This document shows positions 1,649 through 20,761 of a DNA stretch of 35,926 nucleotides, one piece after another. Source of the DNA: Desulfobacterales bacterium (GTDB lineage: Bacteria > Desulfobacterota > DSM-4660 > Desulfatiglandales > B25-G16). The notes beneath the pieces are model-generated. The model was not told the origin of the DNA. It did not search any database and worked only from the letters and a program-made list of their open reading frames with translations. A program made the position numbers and the translations under genes. The stretch is from the NCBI GenBank assembly GCA_013375385.1, contig JABXJY010000001.1:1-35926 (forward strand), given 5' to 3'. Every line of letters begins with the position of its first letter. Position 1 is the first letter of the stretch.

Positions 1649-3367
1649 TCATGGATGCCTGCAGATTACGTTGAGTACCGCCTGCCGTTTTTCTTCCCGT
1701 ACCACTCGCAGTGCTCGTTGCAAGGCGGGAACCACCTCTTCTGGATTCTCGACCCGTTCCCCGTGCCCTCCATTTGCCTCGCAGATCATCTCATAGGCCG
1801 GAGACGGCGAAAGCTCGGTGAGGGGAAAATGGTTGGTCTTCACTGCCCACCCCTGTGGGTGAACTCCCTGGGTAGCTCGCCTCACTGCATTCCAGCACTG
1901 ATTGTTAAATATGACCACCACTATCGGTAAGGCATACGCCCTGGAAACAAAATGGCAGGCAGTAGGAGCACTAAAGAGATAACTCCCATCCCCAACCGTC
2001 GCGATGACCGTCTTCTCCGGAGCGGCAAGTTTTGCCCCCAACGCCGCACCCACACCCCAGCCCAGGCCAGAGGCCGGTGAAGAACCGAAGAAACTTCCGG
2101 GTATGTCCAGATCCACCTGCGTTAGAAGCAAATCGTACTCATTGATCAGGATCGTTTCTGCATCCTTGACCCGATTGATGCAGGCGGAAAGCCAGACCAT
2201 ATCGATGGGTTTATCATCTTTGACCGCCTCGGCCTGCTCCCGCCAACCCTGCCTTTGGCGTTCATGTTCTTTCCTCAGCGCCTCAAAGCGCCTGTCGATC
2301 TTTCGCTTTGCTCTCCCCTGGTATCGTACCATCTCCTGAGTGAGCAGGCGGAGCGCCGCTGCCGGGTCAGCAGCCATTGCAATATCCGCCGGATAGCCAC
2401 GAAGGGGATAGCGACTGTAGAGTGGATCCGGGCGCAACTGGATCACCCGTGCCGTCTCTTTGGGTGTTACCACTGTCGGGAACCAGGGGACATCAGAGTC
2501 AATGACCAACACCACATCAGCCTCCCCAAGGTAGGGAGCCGGGTCGAAACCGAGGTGGAGGGGATGGGTCGTAGGGAAGTTCATATACATGTTGTTCAAT
2601 CCTGCCACCACTGGGATGGCAAAGGACTCGGCAAACATGACCAGTGCCTCTACCGCCTGTGGGTCCCTCCCCACCCCGGCGGTGATGATGAGAGGGTGCT
2701 CAGCGTGGGCAAAGAGTTTTGCCACCTCCTGTATCTGGGCTGGATCAGGATGCAGAGCTCCACCGATCTGCTGTCTTCCGCCTGTGGTGAAGGTTATTTC
2801 TGAGTGAGTCTCCGCGAGCACTTCTCGGGGGAGCGCAAGATACACCGGCCCGCGCGGCTCAGCCATAGCGATAGCCAGCGCTCGATCCACTACCGACTCC
2901 AGTTGGGAAAAGTACTTCAGCTCGTAGTCCCACTTGACAAACTCTCGAATCAGGCTTCCCTGATCGAACGACTCCTGCGCCCAGTGGATTTGCACGCTCC
3001 GTGAGCCGACAAACCCCACCTCGGTAAAGGGGGTGCGACCAGCACTGAATATGACGGGGACATTGACCCGGGCAGCGTTCATGATTGCACCGGAGGCATT
3101 GGCAATTCCCACGATCACATGCACCATGACAACCTGTGGTTCTCCCGTAATCATGTAGTAGCCATGGGCCATACTCACACCGAGAAACTCATGAGGCACT
3201 GTAATTGGACGCGGGTATGGTTTCCCTTGCTCAGCAAACTTAGCAAAGCCATCTACCAGGGAGGCAAAATCGGTACCTGCATTGCCAAAGAAGTACTTGA
3301 CGCCCCGATCTCGCAACAGCTCCAGGTAGCCCTGGGCGGTATTCTCAATGGGTATGGTTTTCTCCAT
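1649..3367 (-). CDS. Thiamine-pyrophosphate-dependent enzyme, acetolactate synthase / pyruvate oxidase superfamily (substrate unknown)
   Basis: Three-domain length of about 570 aa. N-terminal FGNAGTD Pyr-domain motif and C-terminal TPP-binding motif GDGSYLF...NN. Start moved to the ATG at 3367, which has GGAGGAGG immediately upstream. Confidence 0.85.
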   Translation of the reverse strand: MEKTIPIENTAQGYLELLRDRGVKYFFGNAGTDFASLVDGFAKFAEQGKPYPRPITVPHEFLGVSMAHGYYMITGEPQVVMVHVIVGIANASGAIMNAARVNVPVIFSAGRTPFTEVGFVGSRSVQIHWAQESFDQGSLIREFVKWDYELKYFSQLESVVDRALAIAMAEPRGPVYLALPREVLAETHSEITFTTGGRQQIGGALHPDPAQIQEVAKLFAHAEHPLIITAGVGRDPQAVEALVMFAESFAIPVVAGLNNMYMNFPTTHPLHLGFDPAPYLGEADVVLVIDSDVPWFPTVVTPKETARVIQLRPDPLYSRYPLRGYPADIAMAADPAAALRLLTQEMVRYQGRAKRKIDRRFEALRKEHERQRQGWREQAEAVKDDKPIDMVWLSACINRVKDAETILINEYDLLLTQVDLDIPGSFFGSSPASGLGWGVGAALGAKLAAPEKTVIATVGDGSYLFSAPTACHFVSRAYALPIVVVIFNNQCWNAVRRATQGVHPQGWAVKTNHFPLTELSPSPAYEMICEANGGHGERVENPEEVVPALQRALRVVREEKRQAVLNVICRHP

Positions 3368-3684
3368 GATTCCTCCTCCATCAGTCGTCACAAGCATACT
3401 CATCAATAACCCAATTTCCTAGCAGAAGACCAAACAAGTTCTGCCCTCAGTCCCTACATCTACTCAGTGATAGGGGTTTGCCTTTTGATGGGCTGGAGTA
3501 TAGAGGGGAGAGGGTTGCGTGTCAAGGGTGAAAGCGTCGCGGACGCATCTCGGGCTTGCGCCAGCGAGATTTAAGACCAAGCTGGGAAACCTCTTCACAC
3601 CGGCACCAACAAAGAGTGTCAATGGAGTAGTGTCTTAGGTTTGACCATGGTAAAGCAAGGTCTCTGCTTTTTTTCGGTTTATGC

Positions 3685-3958: not shown

Positions 3959-5707
3959 ATGAATTCACTTTTGGCCTTGATCATAGCTGTTGTTTGGGTC
4001 ATTTTAGTTTACCGAATCTACGGCCGGTATGTGGATAAAAATATCGTTCAGTCCGACCCAAAGAAGACCACACCGGCCGTGATGTACATGGATGGTGTGG
4101 ATTTCATGCCTGCTAACAAGAATATCCTTTACGGTTTCCAGTTTAAATCCATCTGCGGGTTGGGCCCAATTGTCGGGGCCATCATTGCTGTTCACTGGGG
4201 ATGGCTCCCGGCTTTTCTATACCTGCTCCTAGGTGTGGCCTTCCTGGGCTGGATCCATGATTACACGGCTGCCCAGGTCTCCATCAGGAAAGAGGGGATG
4301 AGCCTGGGAGGAATGAGCTATACCCTGATCTCACCCCGGGGCCGGACCTTGGTCAGCGTTTTCATCTACTTCAACCTGATGTTTGGCTTCGGGGCCTTCG
4401 CCATCTTCATTGCCGGTACTCTGGCCAGGCCTGATGCTCCTTTGGGTATACTCATCTGGATCGCAATGGGCCTTCTGTTCGGCCAGATGATCTATAAGTG
4501 GAAAATGCCTATTATTACCGCCACCTTGATCACGGTGATCGCAACATTTATCGGTATTTTCGTTTTCAGTGGCCTGGGGCCAATCCAGGGCCTTTTCAGG
4601 GCGATAAGCGGCGGTGACCCATCTCCCGTTCTCTTCGGCACGATCACCCAGGCAAAGTTCATATGGATCTTGTTTGTCCTGGCCTTTTGCTACCTCGGGG
4701 CTACCTTGCCCATCTGGCGCTGGGCCCAGCCCATCAATTACCTGGGTTTTTGGGTGGTCTTTCTCGCCATGTGTGCCACAGGGGTGGGGATCCTCATCTG
4801 GCACCCATCCTTCGGCAATTTTCCGGCTTTCACGGGTTTCGTCTGGGCCGGAAAACCCCTATGGCCGCTGATGTTCGTGACCCTCATGTGCGGCGCGGTT
4901 TCCGGGTGGCATTCGCTGGTGAGCAGTTCGGGAACAGCCCGGATGATCGAAAAGGAGACGGATACGCTCCCTGTGGCTGGCGGTTCCATGCTTCTGGAGG
5001 CGATCACGGGGGTGTTGGCCCTGATCATCGCGGTTTCGGCCTTCGGCAGCTTCGAGGGGTATGCAGAGGCCTTCAGGACAGGAAAGGGCTTCGTTTTCGC
5101 AAAGGGAATGAGCAATTTTCTCGGCTACATCGGCATCCCTGAGTCGATGGCCCTGACTTACGCCAACATCGTTTTTGCAATCATTGGCTTTACCCTGATC
5201 CATCTGGGGGTGCGGTTCATGCGCCTCTACGGCTCCGATGTGCTGGGAGAGTTCTGGCCAGCTTTCAAGAACATTCACTTCTCTACCCTCGTCTCCATCG
5301 CGATCTTCGCAGTCTTCTGCTTCACCGGGGTCTTGACTGCACTCTGGATGCTGGGAGGGGCCTTCAACCAGATGCTGGCTGCCATGGCCTTACTCATCTG
5401 TACCTGCTGGCTCGCCTCGGAAAGGAAGAATTACAAGATCACCCTCTTTCCCTCGATATTTCTGGGTGTCACGACCATCTGCGCCGCGCTGGTCATTTCC
5501 TATAAGGGCTTTGTCCACTTCTTTACGACCAAGGATATACCCGTTGACCGGGCCATCGGGGATTGGGTGACTGGAGTGATCGCGGTTCTTTTGGTCATTT
5601 TGGCGATCATTTTGGTCAAAGACGGCTTCGGTTCCATCGCCCGATTTGCGGCTGAGGGGGCTGCAGCGCCTGCCGGCGAAGGAGCCGAGCCTTCTAAAGC
5701 GGAGTAA
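3959..5707 (+). CDS. cstA: Carbon starvation protein A family transporter (peptide/pyruvate uptake family)
   Basis: 582-aa polytopic membrane protein. The N-terminal region (...FQFKSICGLGPIVGAIIAVHWGWLPAFLYLLLGVAFLGWIHDY) matches the CstA signature. SD AGGAGGG lies 8 nt upstream of the ATG. Confidence 0.9.
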   Translation: MNSLLALIIAVVWVILVYRIYGRYVDKNIVQSDPKKTTPAVMYMDGVDFMPANKNILYGFQFKSICGLGPIVGAIIAVHWGWLPAFLYLLLGVAFLGWIHDYTAAQVSIRKEGMSLGGMSYTLISPRGRTLVSVFIYFNLMFGFGAFAIFIAGTLARPDAPLGILIWIAMGLLFGQMIYKWKMPIITATLITVIATFIGIFVFSGLGPIQGLFRAISGGDPSPVLFGTITQAKFIWILFVLAFCYLGATLPIWRWAQPINYLGFWVVFLAMCATGVGILIWHPSFGNFPAFTGFVWAGKPLWPLMFVTLMCGAVSGWHSLVSSSGTARMIEKETDTLPVAGGSMLLEAITGVLALIIAVSAFGSFEGYAEAFRTGKGFVFAKGMSNFLGYIGIPESMALTYANIVFAIIGFTLIHLGVRFMRLYGSDVLGEFWPAFKNIHFSTLVSIAIFAVFCFTGVLTALWMLGGAFNQMLAAMALLICTCWLASERKNYKITLFPSIFLGVTTICAALVISYKGFVHFFTTKDIPVDRAIGDWVTGVIAVLLVILAIILVKDGFGSIARFAAEGAAAPAGEGAEPSKAE

Positions 5708-5731
5708 GGGATCACCTTACTAAGATCGGAC

Positions 5732-5766
5732 GGGAAGGCCTTTTTCAGGCCTTCCCTTTTCTTTTC
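5732..5766 (+). terminator. Rho-independent terminator of cstA
   Basis: Perfect 9-bp stem GGGAAGGCC / GGCCTTCCC with a 7-nt loop, followed by TTTTCTTTT, 25 nt after the cstA stop. Confidence 0.8.
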
Positions 5767-5860
5767 AGGTGAAAAGATGGAACCTATTACATTGGAAGTG
5801 CTCTCTTTAATCCCTGTCTCATTTTGTAATTGACCGCAGAATGAATTCTTTTCAGACCAG

Positions 5861-6148
5861 GTGGGTCTGGTTGGAAAAAGGGATGAGGTTGACCTCAACG
5901 AATATCCAGAGGACATGAAAGCAGACTATCTCTTCCTCAGCAACTGGCTCAGTGAACTGGCCCAAGAATATAAGGAGAAAATTCGAATCGAGATCATCAA
6001 CGTTTCATCGTTCCGCGGGCTTTATAAATCCATCCGGTATTGGACCCAGACCTACCCCACTTTTATTGTGAACAAAAAAGAAAAATGCAGTGGCAGTGAT
6101 AAATCCCAACTCGATCTCATCCTTCAAAGCCATTTGGGTCGTTCCTAA
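5861..6148 (+). CDS. Hypothetical 95-aa protein, possibly with a thioredoxin-like fold
   Basis: GTG-initiated ORF. The C-terminal ...YPTFIVNKKEKCSG... resembles the beta-strand/turn of Trx-fold proteins. There is no CxxC. Its stop overlaps the SD of the next ORF. Confidence 0.4.
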   Translation: MGLVGKRDEVDLNEYPEDMKADYLFLSNWLSELAQEYKEKIRIEIINVSSFRGLYKSIRYWTQTYPTFIVNKKEKCSGSDKSQLDLILQSHLGRS

Positions 6149-6161
6149 GGGAGCCAACGAA

Positions 6162-6659
6162 ATGGCCATCAACCATACAGAGCACAAAATATCCGCCAAC
6201 AATATTCTCTTCGGGCTCACCCATTTCTTAACCCTGACCCTTCCTGTCGGCTGGAGGATAACCAGAAGCTACCTCCAGCCGGACGTACACTCCAACGTTA
6301 GACGCGGTGATCTCCTTTGGGTGGAAGCCGGGCAAACAGACCAGATCGTGTATCATCCCCTGAGGAAAATTGCCCTGGATTTGACCATCGTGATGAAAAG
6401 GGGGAAGCGAGACGAACTCAAAACCAGGGGCGTTGAGGTCCATTCCCAGGGGTCGCTGATGATCAATGGCCACAAAGCCTGTTATTTTCTCGGAGAGGTG
6501 GGTGTGGGATTCCTCAAGAAAAAACTGGCCAGAACGCTGTGTCTTTCATTCCATTGCTCGGAGTTGGGGCGCACGATTATAATCAGATTCACTGGAGCTT
6601 GCCAGGAGGCTGACCTCTACGAAATCTTTGTGTCTCTCTCGGGATTGAAGTGCCACTGA
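6162..6659 (+). CDS. Hypothetical 165-aa beta-rich protein with several Cys/His
   Basis: ATG at 6162 is preceded by AAGGGAG 8 nt upstream, and that SD overlaps the previous stop. No family recognised. Contains CLSFHC and a C-terminal KCH. Confidence 0.5.
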   Translation: MAINHTEHKISANNILFGLTHFLTLTLPVGWRITRSYLQPDVHSNVRRGDLLWVEAGQTDQIVYHPLRKIALDLTIVMKRGKRDELKTRGVEVHSQGSLMINGHKACYFLGEVGVGFLKKKLARTLCLSFHCSELGRTIIIRFTGACQEADLYEIFVSLSGLKCH

Positions 6660-6761
6660 ACCTCCACCGGCCTTGTCTCTGAACCGTCGAAAAAAGTGGG
6701 TGGACCCTGAGAAAGCGGGCGTTCATAGCGGGGCGAAAGCCGAATAAGGATGGGGCGTAAC

Positions 6762-7058
6762 AGGAGATTGGCCATGGTCGAACAGCAAGAGAAGAAAGAA
6801 GGGATCTTAAGAAGATTTACAAAGGCCGCCGGGGAGTTCATTTACGGGATGGCCGGCCACGAGACCGTCCAACTTGCCCTCAAGACCCGCGGGAACCTGG
6901 AGCATATCTTCATCTTGATCACCATGGGTGATCTCCTGGGAGTGCCGATCCTGCGTCCCTATTATTCCCTCCGCATTTTTCCCTACATGGTTCCTAGGGT
7001 AGCTACCTGGAAGCGTAAAATGCTCCAGGAAAGGGACATCACGGACGAGCTTGGATAA
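6762..7058. repeat. Left arm of an approximately 297-bp inverted repeat (small-protein gene plus its RBS)
   Basis: The reverse complement of 9190..9486 aligns along the full length. It shares a 15-nt RBS/start block, a 21-nt block and a 46/47-nt block. Confidence 0.8.
6774..7058 (+). CDS. Conserved 94-aa protein, copy A (paralogue of 9190..9474)
   Basis: AGGAGA SD 6 nt upstream of the ATG at 6774. About 70% aa identity to copy B, with an identical core FILITMGDLLGVPIL. Confidence 0.75.
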   Translation: MVEQQEKKEGILRRFTKAAGEFIYGMAGHETVQLALKTRGNLEHIFILITMGDLLGVPILRPYYSLRIFPYMVPRVATWKRKMLQERDITDELG

Positions 7059-7140
7059 GAGAGACATGGACGAGGAGGGTCTAGGTATAAGAGCCCTTGG
7101 GCCTAATGAATTGCTGAAGGAGCGGATACTGCACTGCCTG

Positions 7141-8127
7141 TCAAGCAAATAGGTATTGAGCCGTCCTGTTGAGCATTGCCGGCCCTTGAACCTCTGTCTC
7201 AAAAAGCGGGACGATGGCCCTGTTTCTATCCCCGAAGGCCTGCCAGATCTTTTCCATGTGCTCCTCCTGCATCTTGACGCGATTGAGGACGAACTCTGGC
7301 GAGTCAGGCTTCACCGTCTCCTTCTCGATCAATCCATTGACGATCACCCCCCCTATGGGTATCCCGAATTCATGGAACCAATTGATGAACCGGGTGATGA
7401 CGGCAATAGGCAGGCTTTCCGGTAGTGTAACGAAAAAGAAAGCGGTTTTCTCCGGGTCGGTCAATAATCCCCTTGCATCGGCCATCCGATCCTTGAACTG
7501 GAGAAGGTAATCCATCAGGGGATCCTCCTCACCCTTTCTCTTCCTGCTGTAGGAGAGCTTTTTCCGCAATTCCTTGGCCTCTCCCCGGCTCTTGAGCAGC
7601 TTCTCCACCCACAGGGAGTAAACCTTGGACATCCCCAGGAGCCTTCGGGCATTGGCCGTGGGCGCGGTGTCAAAGACGTAGATCTCATATTCGTCTCGGA
7701 ATATCAGGTCGAGCATGTTCTCAAACATGGCGGATTCTTCGAATGCGGGGTTCATGGTTGCAGACTCCACGAATTCTTCGGCCTTCACCGTGATGTCCGC
7801 GAACTTCAAAAACCAGCCGATCTTATCACGGATCTCCGTCTTGGAGTGCTCGATGGTTTCTTTGGTGTCGATCTCCAGCGCGTAACAGCCTTCCTCGCCG
7901 CTGATCAGCACTGGCTTGCCAAAGACGTCCTGCTTCAGAAGGTTGCTCAGACTGTGGACAGGATTGGTGGAGGCCAGGAGTGTCTTCTTTCCCTGTTGGG
8001 CAAACCACAGGGCCGCGGCTCCGGCCATGATCGTCTTCCCCACCCCTCCCTTTCCCCCAAAAAAGACGTACTTGAGCTCCGGATGGGCCTCTACATACTG
8101 CCTCGTGGTCTGCGTAATCGTGCCCAT
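7141..8127 (-). CDS. ArsA/Get3-family (SIMIBI) ATPase, second of a tandem pair
   Basis: Deviant Walker A GGKGGVGKT, NPVHSLSN (DPAHSLSD-like) and DTAPTANARRLL (ArsA DTAPTGHT-like switch II). The ATG is 3 nt after the upstream stop, and GAGGGGAGG overlaps that stop. Confidence 0.85.
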   Translation of the reverse strand: MGTITQTTRQYVEAHPELKYVFFGGKGGVGKTIMAGAAALWFAQQGKKTLLASTNPVHSLSNLLKQDVFGKPVLISGEEGCYALEIDTKETIEHSKTEIRDKIGWFLKFADITVKAEEFVESATMNPAFEESAMFENMLDLIFRDEYEIYVFDTAPTANARRLLGMSKVYSLWVEKLLKSRGEAKELRKKLSYSRKRKGEEDPLMDYLLQFKDRMADARGLLTDPEKTAFFFVTLPESLPIAVITRFINWFHEFGIPIGGVIVNGLIEKETVKPDSPEFVLNRVKMQEEHMEKIWQAFGDRNRAIVPLFETEVQGPAMLNRTAQYLFA

Positions 8128-8130
8128 ATT

Positions 8131-9063
8131 TCACCTCCCCTCACCGAACATGGCCTCGGCCATCTTCTCAATCATAGGCAATCCAGTGACGTCCCGCTCC
8201 ATCTCCGGAACAAAGGCCAAAACCTCTTGGCCGAAAGTACGTTGGATGTCATCCAGATACTTCTCCTGCATCTCGATGCGGTGGAGCAGATACGCAGGGA
8301 TCTCTTTTTCCTTCAGATCGGGGGGAATGACGCGATTGACAATATACCCGCTCAACGGAACGTCGAACTTGGCAAAGAGCTGGGCAGCATTCTGGGTGTC
8401 CTTGATGATCATCTCCTCAGCCACCAGGACGAAGAAGAAGGCCGTCTTCTCCCTGTCGGTGAGGATGCTAGATGACTTGTTGATCCGGTCCTTGATGTAC
8501 AGGAGCTCGTTGAGGATGTGATCTTCCTCCACCTCTTCCTCCCGCTTTACGATTGCTGCCACCTTGTCGTATTCCCGCATCTCCTCTCGAAGCTGGGTTA
8601 TTTTGTCAATCCAGGTGTCGTAGACCGAGGCCATGCTCAGATAGTAGAGGGCGTGGCCCAGAGGAACGAGGTCGTAGATGTAGTAATCGTAACCCCCTTT
8701 GACAACGATATCGACCACCTCATCGAATATCGCGCTTTCCTCCATGGCCGGCTCGGCGGCCGCGGCCTGGATGTAGCTCTCGATCTCATCTGGTATCCTG
8801 GACAGGCCGTACATGCTGAAGATCTTCTGCCGGATCTCCTCCTGGTATTCCTTGATCCTTCGATCAGCGTCGATCTCCTGGGCATACAGGTTCTCCATGA
8901 TCTCTATAGCCCCCTTGCCGAAGATGTCGCGCTCGAAAATATCGCTCAGGGAAGCCTGGGGGTCTACGGAGAAAACCAGCACGCGATGTCCCTTCTTGGC
9001 CAGATAATAGGCCGTGGCAGCAGAGAAGGTGGTCTTGCCCAGACCTCCTTTTCCTCCAAACAT
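8131..9063 (-). CDS. ArsA/Get3-family ATPase, first of a tandem pair (true start may be the ATT at 9111)
   Basis: GGKGGLGKT P-loop, VDPQASLSD, and a degenerate switch II YDLVPLGHA. The ATG at 9063 would begin the protein only 3 residues before the P-loop. Confidence 0.85.
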   Translation of the reverse strand: MFGGKGGLGKTTFSAATAYYLAKKGHRVLVFSVDPQASLSDIFERDIFGKGAIEIMENLYAQEIDADRRIKEYQEEIRQKIFSMYGLSRIPDEIESYIQAAAAEPAMEESAIFDEVVDIVVKGGYDYYIYDLVPLGHALYYLSMASVYDTWIDKITQLREEMREYDKVAAIVKREEEVEEDHILNELLYIKDRINKSSSILTDREKTAFFFVLVAEEMIIKDTQNAAQLFAKFDVPLSGYIVNRVIPPDLKEKEIPAYLLHRIEMQEKYLDDIQRTFGQEVLAFVPEMERDVTGLPMIEKMAEAMFGEGR

Positions 9064-9189
9064 GATATACCTTCGGTCAGGGTATCGGGTGAAAATATCG
9101 GTGATTGAAATGGCAAACCTCCTTCTGACAGGTTACTCGGGACGCTGTTATTATGAGTTATTCGCTGTATCCGAGCGGGTCTACGCTTC

Positions 9190-9474
9190 TTATGCAAGTG
9201 CGTCCGTGAGGTCCTTTTCACGGAGCATCCTACGCTTCCAGGTCGCTACCTGAGGAACCACGTAGGGAAGAATACGCAGGGAATAATAGGGGGGCAGGAT
9301 CGGCACTCCCAAGAGATCACCCATGGTGATCAAGATGAAGAGATGTTCCATACTCCCGCGGGTCTTGAGGGCAAATCGGGCGGTGTCGTGGGCGGCCATC
9401 CCATAAACGACCTCCCTGGTGGCCCTTAAAGCTCTTTTTAGGACACCTTCTCTTTTCTCTTCCTGCTCGGTCAT
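9190..9474 (-). CDS. Conserved 94-aa protein, copy B (first gene of the ATPase operon)
   Basis: AGGAGA SD 6 nt upstream of the ATG at 9474. Paralogue of 6774..7058. Confidence 0.75.
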   Translation of the reverse strand: MTEQEEKREGVLKRALRATREVVYGMAAHDTARFALKTRGSMEHLFILITMGDLLGVPILPPYYSLRILPYVVPQVATWKRRMLREKDLTDALA

Positions 9475-9486
9475 GGCCAATCTCCT
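9190..9486. repeat. Right arm of the approximately 297-bp inverted repeat
   Basis: See the left arm at 6762..7058. Confidence 0.8.
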
Positions 9487-9546
9487 CTTATGCTCCATCC
9501 TGATTCAATTCTTGCCCTGCTACAAACACCTGCTTTTTCAGTCGCT

Positions 9547-9574
9547 AGTATAGTAACATTGAAAGTAATGTCAA
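9547..9574 (-). promoter_or_regulatory. Near-consensus sigma70 promoter for small-protein B and the two ATPases
   Basis: The minus strand reads TTGACA (9574-9569), a 16-nt spacer, then TATACT (9552-9547). It is preceded by an A/T-rich UP-like tract (gatttttttgatttttt). Confidence 0.6.
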
Positions 9575-20573: not shown

Positions 20574-20688
20574 ATTTTCCCCCGCTCCAATGCCGTGTCA
20601 GCAGTTCTTTTTTGATCTACTGTTGTTTAGGTGGGCGTTCCATTACCCCATTAGGCCTTCTTTCAATATCTAAGAAACACACGAGAGT

Positions 20689-20707
20689 AAAAGGGAACTC
20701 CCTTTTT
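20689..20707 (-). terminator. Possible bidirectional intrinsic terminator after zapA
   Basis: AAAAGGG-aact-CCCTTTTT: an A-tract, a short GC stem and a T-tract, about 55 nt after the zapA stop. The stem is short. Confidence 0.4.
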
Positions 20708-20761
20708 CATTCGTTTTGACCCAAAACCTTCCACCAATCACGAACATACCAGGGGAATGAT

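Follow-up and report, generated by a model that had tools for sequence, protein, structure and literature searches.

A locus very probably belonging to a conserved CstA-linked ATPase module, with a predicted thioredoxin-fold selenoprotein, in a Desulfobacterales bacterium

Two adjacent genes for ArsA/Get3-family ATPases, bracketed by two related 94-aa proteins in opposite orientations, raise the question of which system these ATPases serve. The locus (5861-9574) lies in a window of 35,926 nt, the whole stretch of DNA analysed, where its neighbours include MgtE, a patatin, a TPP enzyme, CstA, PurA, PAC2, DegT and others. An earlier note, made from the sequence, had excluded an arsenic pump context, and this holds: no ars genes occur within about 8 kb of the locus, ATPase 1 is devoid of Cys, and the single Cys of ATPase 2 is not conserved. 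The same note regarded the locus as an undescribed system with two unclassifiable ORFs. The features that it listed (ORFs, promoter and gene junction) were all recovered at their coordinates (Table 1), whereas the extent of the 95-aa ORF and the start of ATPase 1 had to be revised, and the boundary had been drawn too tight, overlooking the adjoining gene of the organising partner, a CstA-family permease. Our results indicate that the locus is, with high probability, one copy of a conserved CstA-linked multi-gene module, and the two ORFs are conserved members of it with homologues elsewhere. The first unit runs from CstA through the thioredoxin-fold selenoprotein and the 165-aa Cys/His protein to DUF7990-A, and the second from the promoter through DUF7990-B and ATPase 1 to ATPase 2.

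Table 1. Features of the locus and of the adjoining permease gene (positions in the window).
Feature	Position	Strand	Remarks
CstA-family permease, 582 aa	3959-5707	+	PF02554, 2e-101; adjoins the locus
Terminator-like hairpin (putative)	5732-5756	+	10-bp stem then T-run; between CstA and selenoprotein genes; pattern scan
Predicted thioredoxin-fold selenoprotein, 123 aa	5777-6148	+	C-N-U motif replaces CxxC of homologues
UGA selenocysteine codon (predicted)	5831-5833	+	in-frame; aligned with first Cys of CxxC
SECIS-like hairpin	5853-5869	+	CAGACC-AGGUG-GGUCUG; begins 19 nt past UGA
ORF	5861-6148	+	95-aa ORF of the earlier note; part of selenoprotein gene downstream of UGA
ORF	6090-6659	+	165 aa counted from ATG 6162
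Conserved Cys/His protein, 165 aa	6162-6659	+	81 homologues
ORF	6750-7058	+	94 aa counted from ATG 6774
DUF7990 (probable CstX) paralogue A, 94 aa	6774-7058	+	68% identical to B
ATPase 2 (also ORF), 328 aa, ArsA/Get3 family	7141-8127	-	PF02374, 3e-64; STNPVHSL, FDTAPTANA
ORF	8131-9063	-	ATPase 1 as first called from ATG 9063
ATPase 1, 326 aa, ArsA/Get3 family	8131-9111	-	PF02374, 5e-69; SVDPQASL, YDLVPLGHALYYLSM
DUF7990 (probable CstX) paralogue B, 94 aa	9190-9474	-	first gene of ATPase operon
ORF	9190-9498	-	94 aa counted from ATG 9474
Sigma-70-like promoter	9547-9574	-	TTGACA-16-TATACT; 11/12 consensus positions; pattern match only

The two small proteins are indeed paralogues, aligning over 94/94 residues with 68% identity (E 5e-52). 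Paralogue B has 4642 homologues, which form 370 clusters at 50% identity, and among the matches listed 120/120 carry PF25952 (DUF7990). Paralogue A shows a sub-threshold NCBIfam match to cory-CC-star (2e-07), and its orthologues are similarly arranged in two other loci (L011 and L075). Across phyla, DUF7990 retains 73-86% identity with G52, G56, P58 and W79 invariant and contains no Cys; a tandem DUF7990::DUF7990 protein also exists (P0001). The AF2 model of paralogue B predicts two long helices meeting at the PPYY turn (pLDDT 77.6, pTM 0.33), and GGAG lies 7 nt ahead of its ATG.

Synteny was assessed at 80 species loci, drawn from at least 597 genomes with a match. The genes immediately downstream of DUF7990 are ATPase 1 and ATPase 2, on the same strand and in the same order, in 69/69 species loci with enough flank, and a CstA-family permease adjoins this gene set in 35/37 loci (upstream on the same strand in 33 of those 35). 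These figures may drop in distant members, since the loci sampled are the nearest ones to the query. The linkage is far above chance. The tight association between the 94-aa family and paired ArsA-like genes, which the earlier note proposed to check across genomes, is borne out. Two or more DUF7990 copies are present in 23/37 loci, and CstA was absent within 8 kb at two Thermoflexia loci carrying the DUF7990-ATPase genes. The same cluster is present in Hodarchaeota and on a contig from a soil metagenome, where the DUF7990 protein groups with one from a 'Firmicutes bacterium' MAG.

Castillo & Saier (2010; Int J Microbiol 2010:187373; PMC2963123) had already recognised clusters of this kind by genome context and proposed a mechanism in which the ATPase energises CstA via the ~90-aa CstX. 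They reported 26 clusters of CstA with an ArsA homologue, 24 of them containing CstX, and a co-phylogeny of the three proteins. As in our locus, these cstA-cstX-(cstY)-arsA-homologue clusters place CstA beside a ~90-aa protein showing a single hydropathy peak, along with single-domain ArsA homologues of ~330 aa, the ATPase pairs are adjacent in some genomes (Symbiobacterium, Pyrobaculum), CstX is duplicated in some, CstX is more conserved than the ATPases, and arsR and other ars genes are absent. In contrast, the present module is divided into two convergent units, includes two proteins absent from the paper's description (the thioredoxin-fold selenoprotein and the 165-aa Cys/His protein), and has no recognised counterpart of the ~210-aa CstY. 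Judging from sequence and gene order, it is probably the same system, and DUF7990 is the probable CstX, the two being equated by matching descriptors and not by accession numbers.

The interpretation of the 95-aa ORF as a separate gene was rejected because coding continues upstream of the in-frame UGA; the ORF is, on sequence grounds, the tail of the 123-aa selenoprotein. At seven loci, the in-frame TGA is flanked on both sides by conserved coding sequence and aligns with the first CxxC Cys of Cys-type homologues, and the SECIS-like hairpin is present in 7/7 UGA-type genes. A search of both strands of 1.2 Mb of fetched loci gave no further occurrence of the motif, and the hairpin had no match in Rfam. 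For a Cys-type homologue (P0348; AF2 pLDDT 77.7, pTM 0.72), thioredoxins and constructs based on them make up the top Foldseek PDB matches listed (TM 0.5-0.6). Trx-like::DUF7990 fusions occur in three proteins (P0190, P0192, P0128), and the gene order CstA-fusion-DUF7990-ArsA-ArsA is seen on the four contigs with such a fusion, which come from different samples. The 165-aa protein matches no Pfam or NCBIfam model, is 27% identical (E 2e-22) to the product of a 162-aa gene located after ATPase 2 in locus L096, and belongs to a family with a C-terminal Cys-His in 79/80 members, along with other invariant Cys and His residues. With detection in 22/37 loci for the Trx-like gene and in 5/37 for the 165-aa gene, both rank as accessory rather than core members. 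These data directly support the homologies, the synteny, the asymmetry of the motifs, the gene fusions and the selenocysteine signature.

The tandem genes encode ArsA/Get3-family ATPases as first noted, both matching PF02374 and TIGR00345 in the HMM check, with 36% identity to each other. Among solved structures, the best sequence matches are archaeal Get3 of M. jannaschii (3ug6; 5e-59 for ATPase 1 and 5e-55, its best PDB match, for ATPase 2) and M. thermautotrophicus (3zq6), full length with E 5e-51 to 5e-59. Both share with these the deviant Walker A GKGGVGKT and no large gap at the TRC40-insert position, and their groove-lining helices equal those of M. jannaschii Get3 in hydrophobicity. 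Unlike the archaeal homodimer, they are two diverged paralogues without the CXXC of M. jannaschii Get3 (CDFC), and their lid segments are charged (net -5 in ATPase 1, +4 in ATPase 2) and Met-poor (1 and 0 vs 4 in M. jannaschii). ATPase 1 keeps the catalytic motifs, including the switch I Asp; ATPase 2 lacks the GH of DTAPTGH and has an invariant Asn in place of the switch I Asp, and its catalytic site is probably degenerate. The pair is therefore probably an asymmetric heterodimer. The gene order is constant and the signature motifs of each ATPase are invariant (at least 95%) among 76 orthologues each, yet different between the two, which makes an obligate pair likely, in agreement with the heterodimer first suggested.

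The ATPase 1 stop (8133-8131) lies just ahead of the ATPase 2 start (8127), with GGGAGG within the end of ATPase 1, and homologous loci show 4-nt overlaps at this junction. The ATPase 1 start at ATG 9063 was replaced by a conserved ATT (9111), 6 nt after AAGGAGG, at the aligned start codon across loci (ATT in 30, ATG in 29 and TTG in 25 of 85 loci). The near-consensus promoter is present as reported, as a match to a pattern only, and the region holds 4 promoter-like sites against 3.1 expected from shuffles, which is no excess.

E. coli ArsA-ArsB resembles the present system in belonging to PF02374 and TIGR00345, in a SIMIBI ATPase whose two halves are homologous but not equivalent, and in the docking of the ATPase on a secondary-carrier-type permease, as proposed here. 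In contrast, the halves here are separate genes without metalloid-binding cysteines, they score 86-96 bits against the ArsA equivalog cut-off of 650, and ArsB, Acr3, ArsD, ArsR and ArsC are lacking. M. tuberculosis BagA/BagB (Rv3679/Rv3680) are likewise two adjacent diverged ArsA/Get3-like genes, whose products form a heterodimer (PDB 6bs3); however, the NCBIfam scores reach 31-53 bits against cut-offs of 400-521, the match to 6bs3 (1.5e-07) covers only the P-loop region, and we know of no linkage of the Bag genes to CstA.

The permease matches NCBIfam CstA (6e-49) under the equivalog cut-off, has about 13-17 hydropathy peaks, and belongs to a short, divergent subfamily, just 26% identical to E. 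coli BtsT and without its ~100-aa central insert. Its E. coli CstA relatives transport pyruvate or peptides. As here, the CstA-family permease of E. coli btsT-yjiX-yjiA is accompanied by a small protein (in E. coli with Cys) and by a SIMIBI NTPase, and that of cstA-ybdD by a small Cys-containing protein; relatives of their small protein are selenoproteins. Nevertheless, the E. coli small protein is DUF466, unrelated to DUF7990 by hhalign (probability 0.9%), and the btsT-locus NTPase is a COG0523 GTPase and not an ArsA/Get3 protein. CstA requires YbdD for pyruvate uptake (PMC5847655), and other CstA-family permeases have partner proteins ending in CC or CU (bioRxiv 10.1101/2022.07.06.499078), in line with a KCU-star match in our NCBIfam search. 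According to database annotation and PMC7730263, E. coli CstA and BtsT are proton symporters that work with no ArsA-like ATPase, and an ATP motor is thus no inherent property of the CstA family.

Among the mechanisms considered, ATP-coupled transport or gating of CstA appears the likeliest, and we favour it tentatively. ATPase 1, retaining the switch I Asp, and ATPase 2, which because of its Asn should bind nucleotide and hydrolyse poorly, would pair as an asymmetric heterodimer of the Get3/ArsA type. The helical hairpins of DUF7990 (CstX) would serve as stoichiometric adaptors whose near-invariant hydrophobic tip docks either within the groove of the closed ATPase dimer or onto CstA from the cytoplasmic side, and ATP-driven closing and opening would be coupled to transport or gating, analogous to ArsA on ArsB. 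The thioredoxin-like Sec/Cys protein (CstX-fused in some lineages) and the Cys/His protein may add a thiol/selenol redox or ligand-handling step. We infer that the ATPases form a heterodimer and associate physically with CstA, and likewise infer which way transport runs and what is carried. Counted in favour were synteny, the Hodarchaeota and soil clusters, the 2010 co-phylogeny, motif asymmetry, opposite lid charges, fusions and DUF7990 conservation, together with the btsT-yjiX-yjiA analogy and the YbdD requirement. Counted against were symport by CstA/BtsT without an ArsA-like ATPase, the closeness of the ATPases to archaeal Get3 and not ArsA, Get3-like groove hydrophobicity, the two Thermoflexia loci, the equation of DUF7990 with CstX by descriptors, and the sampling of loci nearest the query.

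The earlier note instead saw the pair as a dedicated Get3-like targeting ATPase or chaperone, with the hairpin proteins as clients or partners. In this reading a targeting or holdase chaperone would shield the DUF7990 hairpins and deliver them to the membrane, and once there they may go on to associate with CstA. The nearest structural relatives, archaeal Get3, bind tail-anchored proteins (PMC6593721), the insert is of about Get3 length, the groove helices are amphipathic, the hydrophobic stretch of DUF7990 lies 16 residues from the C-terminus at the tip of the predicted hairpin, and paired small proteins often accompany paired ATPases; yeast GET clients include monotopic hairpins (PMC9123286). 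Nevertheless, the hydrophobic stretch of DUF7990 is only borderline (Kyte-Doolittle 19-residue maximum about 1.6). It contains Asp, Arg and five Pro, its insertion energy sums to about +7 kcal/mol on the Hessa scale, and it is ill-suited to membrane insertion. Unlike client transmembrane segments, it is nearly invariant across phyla, and a specific docking element would thus fit better than a generic anchor needing chaperoning. The charged, Met-poor lids and the missing CXXC also argue against a chaperone, which leaves the near-universal CstA linkage and the Trx-like fusion unexplained, and we consider it unlikely.

A nucleotide-state switch or assembly factor is improbable to a similar degree: the pair would sense energy charge and gate, regulate or assemble CstA via DUF7990, while transport stays proton-driven. 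The symport attributed to E. coli members, the use of the COG0523 GTPase YjiA in the analogous trio, and the degenerate ATPase 2 site with the weak ATT start of ATPase 1, which suit a low-turnover, low-abundance regulator, all speak for it. BtsT is, to our knowledge, not dependent on YjiA, and SIMIBI NTPases are commonly dimerisation switches. However, ATPase 1 conserves the full catalytic motif set strongly, the only established ArsA-permease pair, ArsAB, is energising, and no sensor domain is evident. We give still less credence to trafficking of a thiol/selenol-reactive ligand (a metal, metalloid, sulfur or selenium species), resembling ArsD-ArsA-ArsB, in which the thioredoxin-like and Cys/His proteins would carry the ligand to the ATPase-permease pair. 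The UxxC/CxxC thioredoxin-fold member, its fusion to DUF7990, the invariant residues of the 165-aa family and the CC/CU-ending partners of other permeases are consistent with it, and ArsD is itself a thioredoxin-fold chaperone for ArsA. In contrast, the lack of conserved Cys in both ATPases means that there is no ArsA-type thiolate site, DUF7990 has no Cys, and the two candidate carriers are patchily distributed.

The module is widespread and has been known since 2010 as a genome-based prediction, and the copy described here additionally carries a predicted selenoprotein that had been overlooked.

All the elements that the earlier note had listed for this region are present at the locus, as judged from the ORF map and the sequence. 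The two small proteins (DUF7990-A and DUF7990-B) are inverted paralogues, encoded on opposite strands and 68% identical, and between them, on the minus strand, lie the tandem genes of two ArsA/Get3-family ATPases (ATPase 1 and ATPase 2), clear members of PF02374/TIGR00345 that share 36% identity. The stop codon of ATPase 1 is located 3 nt ahead of the ATPase 2 start codon, with a GGGAGG within the last ATPase 1 codons, and homologous loci show a 4-nt overlap of the two genes. The near-consensus promoter proposed for this operon agrees with the consensus at 11 of 12 positions and is a consensus match only; a pattern scan across the region found no excess of promoter-like sites over shuffles. 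Since ars genes are absent within about 8 kb, this is not an arsenic pump context, as had been stated. The boundary drawn by the earlier note, in contrast, was too narrow: the gene of a CstA-family permease sits immediately outside it, and the module extends from 3959 to 9574.

Features of the CstA module and of other parts of the window
Feature	Coordinates	Strand	Description
TPP-dependent enzyme	1649-3406	-	585 aa, three TPP domains
CstA-family permease	3959-5707	+	PF02554 at 2e-101
Terminator-like hairpin	5732-5756	+	strong; between CstA and the selenoprotein gene
Trx-like protein	5777-6148	+	123 aa, putative selenoprotein
SECIS-like hairpin	5853-5869	+	CAGACC-AGGUG-GGUCUG
165-aa ORF	6162-6659	+	conserved Cys/His family
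DUF7990-A	6774-7058	+	94 aa
ATPase 2	7141-8127	-	328 aa
ATPase 1	8131-9111	-	326 aa
DUF7990-B	9190-9474	-	94 aa
Promoter-like site	9574-9547	-	TTGACA-16-TATACT
6S RNA (RF00013)	20575-20758	-	62 bits, exceeds the gathering score

When species-representative genomes were scanned with a peptide pattern built from nine sequences, P[IV][LI]PPYYSL, at least 597 loci were confirmed; the 80 best of these belong to Thermodesulfobacteriota, Chloroflexota, WOR-3, and Phycisphaerae. The window proteins were mapped by tblastn onto these best loci. The co-occurrence of the 94-aa family with paired ArsA-like genes, which the earlier note had proposed to compare across genomes, was found throughout, as every one of the 69 loci with enough flank encodes ATPase 1 followed by ATPase 2, directly downstream of DUF7990 and in the same orientation. 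Of 37 loci, 35 have a CstA-family permease gene (located upstream, on the same strand, in 33 of those); a second DUF7990 copy is found in 23/37, and a homologue of the Trx-like protein in 22/37. The split arrangement of the window also occurs in six related loci (L001, L011, L015, L017, L029, and L075). Another locus, L090, comes from a Chloroflexus MAG. A Hodarchaeota genome (L094) carries the core cluster too, as does a contig from a soil metagenome; the DUF7990 of this contig clusters with a protein from a ‘Firmicutes bacterium’ MAG. Overall, the module is spread over Desulfobacterota, Chloroflexota, Acidobacteriota, Planctomycetota, WOR-3, this single ‘Firmicutes bacterium’ MAG, and Asgard archaea. 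In the latter, DUF7990 and paired Get3-like ATPases, with CstA nearby, were observed in Hod-, Heimdall-, and Thorarchaeota MAGs (L094 and P0140 clusters). Two Thermoflexia loci (L062 and L079) carry two DUF7990 genes and the ATPase pair with CstA absent within 8 kb either side, and are possible exceptions to the CstA linkage. A tblastn search for DUF7990 in the PLSDB plasmids found none.

In the window itself, the strong terminator-like hairpin downstream of CstA implies that this gene is possibly transcribed apart from the unit formed by the selenoprotein, the 165-aa ORF, and DUF7990-A. The gene of a TPP-dependent enzyme is located on the other strand, some 550 bp upstream of CstA; its position beside CstA is suggestive, by analogy, as it would fit the carriage of pyruvate by CstA-family members.

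The earlier note did not recognise this cluster as a described system, but it had already been predicted in 2010. By SEED context and tree comparison, Castillo and Saier (2010; PMC2963123) found 26 clusters that link cstA with genes of single-domain, ~330-aa ArsA homologues; in 24 of them there was also a ~90-aa ‘single-TMS’ protein, CstX, which was never found without CstA, was sometimes duplicated, and was more conserved than the ATPase. They also reported a cluster in Thermococcus kodakarensis, adjacent ATPase pairs in Symbiobacterium thermophilum and Pyrobaculum arsenaticum, as well as a ~210-aa protein, CstY, in five archaea, and proposed that the ArsA homologue energises CstA with CstX as the coupler. 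The present locus resembles that module in its adjoining CstA permease gene, a linkage shared by 35/37 related loci, in the size of its ArsA homologues (326 and 328 aa, their range being about 300-340), and in having no ars genes. CstX is described as having a single hydropathy peak; DUF7990, the candidate CstX, is 94 aa long with a Kyte-Doolittle 19-residue maximum of about 1.6, is duplicated in 23/37 loci, and is accompanied by CstA in 35/37. Judged from these sequence features, DUF7990 and its locus fit all the descriptors of CstX and its module, a match by description and not by accession: the supplement of PMC2963123 holds no CstX identifiers, the members of the two clusters looked up are MAG ‘hypothetical proteins’, and no accession or organism linking DUF7990 to CstX was found. 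The searched literature contained no later papers on DUF7990, PF25952, cory-CC-star, or CstX in this sense beyond Castillo and Saier, no follow-up of the 2010 prediction, and no experimental characterisation. The system is a known bioinformatic prediction, and the locus belongs to a kind described from genome context in 2010, with extra components. ATPase 2 is followed in 15/37 loci, in Chloroflexota (e.g., L008 10326-10928), by a protein of ~200 aa that has TPR repeats and, at the N-terminus, hydrophobic segments; this protein may be a functional counterpart of CstY.

The structures closest to both ATPases are those of archaeal Get3 (3ug6 and 3zq6, E-values of 5e-51 to 5e-59), followed by E. 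coli ArsA (about 1e-30), while M. tuberculosis BagA matches at the P-loop only. Alignments of 76 orthologues each delimit two sharply distinct and highly conserved subfamilies, ATPase 1 being characterised by the motifs GGKGGLGKTT, SVDPQASL, and YDLVPLGHALYYLSM, and ATPase 2 by GGKGGVGKT, LLASTNPVHSL, and FDTAPTANARRLLGMS. ATPase 1 keeps the switch I Asp (D57 in yeast Get3) in SVDPQASL; in ATPase 2 it is replaced by an Asn (STNPVHSL) that is invariant in the 76 orthologues. In yeast Get3, the D57N variant binds ATP and does not hydrolyse it. From this phenotype and the invariant Asn, it is natural to infer that the two proteins would form an obligate heterodimer with one active and one degenerate site, unlike the Get3 homodimer, in which each subunit carries the catalytic Asp and the two chains are not distinct paralogues. 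Compared with M. jannaschii Get3, the groove-lining helices of both ATPases are equally hydrophobic and the length of the TRC40 insert is kept, whereas the CXXC zinc motif (CDFC) is found in neither, being replaced by KEIPAYL in ATPase 1 and DSPEFVL in ATPase 2; some functional Get3 proteins also lack CXXC (PMC6593721). The lid, which in the M. jannaschii protein contains four Met, has a net charge of -5 and one Met in ATPase 1, and a net charge of +4 and no Met in ATPase 2. A groove may exist in the ATPase pair, but the greasy lid appears to be absent.

In contrast to ArsA, which consists of two fused halves (about 580 aa) and bears metalloid cysteines, the two proteins are encoded by separate single-domain genes and such cysteines are absent, ATPase 1 having no Cys and ATPase 2 a single, non-conserved one. 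The DTAPTGH of ArsA corresponds to DLVPLGH in ATPase 1 and DTAPTAN in ATPase 2, both invariant. Assignments to true ArsA (TIGR04291, 86-96 bits against a cut-off of 650) and to M. tuberculosis BagA/BagB (NCBIfam, 31-53 bits against equivalog cut-offs of 400 and 521) were rejected; the motifs also speak against both.

The ATPase 1 ORF as listed opens inside the P-loop strand (MFGGKGG). An in-frame ATT (9111-9109(-)) is located upstream, 6 nt after an AAGGAGG, and gives the N-terminus SITDIFTRYPDRRYIMFGG, which parallels that of ATPase 2. In an alignment of 85 loci, the start codon reads ATT 30 times, ATG 29 times, and TTG 25 times, always with a strong Shine-Dalgarno sequence ahead. The upstream AAGGAGG, the parallel N-terminus, and the aligned starts therefore place the true start at 9111. 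ATT is a conserved non-canonical start codon of the clade, suggesting that ATPase 1 is translated at a low level or in an IF3-sensitive way. Standard gene callers make the protein 16 residues too short.

The search with DUF7990-B yielded 4642 homologues, and an exhaustive HMMER search 370 clusters at 50% identity. Among the matches listed, the precomputed table assigns PF25952 (DUF7990) to all 120 homologues, one of them 96% identical, and most listed homologues are 75-96% identical despite belonging to different phyla. The proteins are labelled hypothetical in every source, and NCBIfam gives a sub-threshold match only, to ‘cory-CC-star protein’. In a 36-member alignment, the core reads FGDLLGxPxLPPYYSLRLLPYVVPxIxxWKRRxLRERDxTD, with G52, G56, P58, and W79 invariant. 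AlphaFold2 models DUF7990-B as a pair of long helices, spanning residues 3-54 and 62-93, that meet at the PPYY turn (pLDDT 77.6, pTM only 0.33), the hydrophobic stretch being the predicted hairpin tip. Insertion of this stretch into a membrane, as in the hairpin proposed by the earlier note, is poorly predicted: the stretch is only borderline hydrophobic (Kyte-Doolittle 19-residue maximum of about 1.6; summed Hessa-scale insertion energy of about +7 kcal/mol). Foldseek retrieved no PDB match for this model at E <= 10; a helical hairpin offers little fold information, and the pTM is low. In three representative proteins (P0190, at L098 6001-6675, P0192, and P0128), a Trx-like domain is naturally fused ahead of DUF7990, at its N-terminus, and P0001 is a tandem of two DUF7990. 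A candidate fusion to CstA (fragment P0157, resembling the CstA C-terminus) was set aside as weak and possibly an artefact, with no contig on record and none in the 74 fetched loci. Homology of DUF7990 to E. coli YjiX (DUF466) was likewise rejected (hhalign probability of 0.9%).

Two ORFs had been called unclassifiable by the earlier note, and both can now be placed. The 95-aa ORF is, by its sequence conservation, most probably the downstream portion of a thioredoxin-fold selenoprotein. Its gene starts at ATG 5777, with AGGTGA ahead, meets a TGA at 5831-5833, and continues in frame into the 95-aa ORF. The in-frame TGA, with conserved peptide on each side (MxPITxEVxSLxP...U...SDQxGL...YPED), recurs in six further loci. 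When these seven UGA-type genes were compared with more than 20 of the Cys type, the TGA position fell on the first Cys of their CxxC, which is nearly invariant; some Sec forms have UPHC here, and the window form has CNU. The SECIS-like hairpin begins 19 nt past the UGA in 7/7 UGA-type genes, with a stem of 6 bp or longer, a loop of AGGUG or AGUUG, and a G in the apical loop, and is exclusive to these seven genes in 1.2 Mb of fetched sequence. The stem displayed no covariation among the seven genes, Rfam gave no match for the hairpin, and no tRNA gene is located within the window. Sec use is common in Desulfobacterota. Nearly all the database entries of this family end at the UGA (94-99 aa, ‘hypothetical’, no Pfam) and NCBIfam has no model for it, so it may not have been described as a selenoprotein family before. 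One full-length homologue, P0303, has a Trp at the Sec position (CNWGHY), which reflects either a genuine TGG codon or gene calling with a code in which TGA is Trp. The AlphaFold2 model of a Cys form, P0348, has a thioredoxin-type arrangement of strands and helices (pLDDT 77.7, pTM 0.72), and its top listed Foldseek matches in the PDB are thioredoxins or thioredoxin-based constructs (TM 0.5-0.6). Four contigs from different samples carry one of the Trx-like::DUF7990 fusions, preceded by CstA and followed by DUF7990 and then by two ATPase genes; such fusions are gene-fusion evidence of a physical partnership with DUF7990.

The 165-aa ORF belongs to a conserved family with 81 homologues, none annotated in Pfam or NCBIfam, and is present in 5/37 loci. 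It is 27% identical (E 2e-22) to the product of a 162-aa gene that immediately follows ATPase 2 in a cluster from a soil metagenome (L096 9333-9821). A C-terminal Cys-His is found in 79/80 members, and further Cys and His are invariant. The protein is a genuine but patchy accessory component. Its Cys-His end recalls the CC/CU-terminal small proteins beside other CstA-family permeases.

In E. coli K-12 (L101, NC_000913.3, 4587909-4591279), btsT is followed by yjiX, a DUF466 gene with a Cys-Cys end, and by yjiA, a COG0523 SIMIBI GTPase. This trio is analogous to the present one, but the accessory parts are non-homologous, and the window CstA is 26% identical to BtsT and lacks its central insert of about 100 residues. 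Pyruvate uptake by CstA requires the DUF466 protein YbdD (PMC5847655), and DUF466 relatives in Campylobacter are Cys-Sec-terminal selenoproteins (bioRxiv 10.1101/2022.07.06.499078), in line with which a KCU-star match was obtained in the NCBIfam search. By analogy, the recurrence of a CstA-family permease with a small Cys/Sec protein and a SIMIBI NTPase suggests a general organisation.

The best-supported reading, which we hold with a little less than even confidence, is that the ATPase heterodimer is coupled via DUF7990 to CstA and powers or gates transport, together with a redox accessory. In this reading, the two ATPases would form an asymmetric Get3/ArsA-type dimer linked to CstA by the DUF7990 hairpins, the ATP-driven closing and opening of the dimer would power or gate CstA transport, and the redox accessory would join this coupling. 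The NTPase need not be the energy source, however, because BtsT is a proton symporter and is found beside a SIMIBI NTPase; this E. coli analogy favours the ATPases being a nucleotide-state regulator or an assembly factor instead of a motor, which we consider unlikely.

The earlier note had proposed a dedicated Get3-like chaperone with DUF7990 as its client. A partnership between a heterodimeric ATPase and the small proteins is supported by the asymmetry of the pair and the 69/69 linkage, and the chaperone role agrees with the proximity of the ATPases to archaeal Get3 and with their retained amphipathic groove helices. Nevertheless, the near-invariant hydrophobic tip of DUF7990, its poor predicted insertion, the CstA linkage (35/37), and the Trx-like fusions point to a stable subunit instead of a transient client, so that DUF7990 as client is also unlikely and less favoured than DUF7990 as adaptor to CstA. 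Less probable still is a prokaryotic GET-like pathway with a dedicated client, in which the heterodimer groove would capture the DUF7990 hairpin before loading it onto, or into, the CstA complex; the DUF7990-ATPase system, whose conservation reaches from Desulfobacterota and Chloroflexota as far as the Asgard archaea, could therefore be a living model of pre-eukaryotic Get3 client handling. A relay of the ArsD/ArsA type, passing on a thiophilic ligand, is the least probable of these readings.

To our knowledge, ArsA/Get3-class ATPases are understood in two settings only, arsenite pumping and tail-anchored protein targeting. The CstA module is a third setting, and a widespread one: a single narrow peptide pattern finds matches in at least 597 species genomes. 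To the 2010 description, the present analysis adds the module boundary, the invariant catalytic asymmetry, the ATT start, a putative selenoprotein that fusions tie to the probable CstX, one more accessory family, and the occurrence of the system in Asgard archaea. Annotations would be corrected as well: a selenoprotein family is cut at its UGA, ATPase 1 is 16 residues short, and a functional context is given to two ‘hypothetical’ families. Were the ATPase pair to drive or gate CstA via the 94-aa adaptor, this would be the second case, after ArsAB, of a secondary-type permease working with a Get3/ArsA-type ATPase, and would also provide a function for most of the non-ars bacterial ‘ArsA’ annotations.
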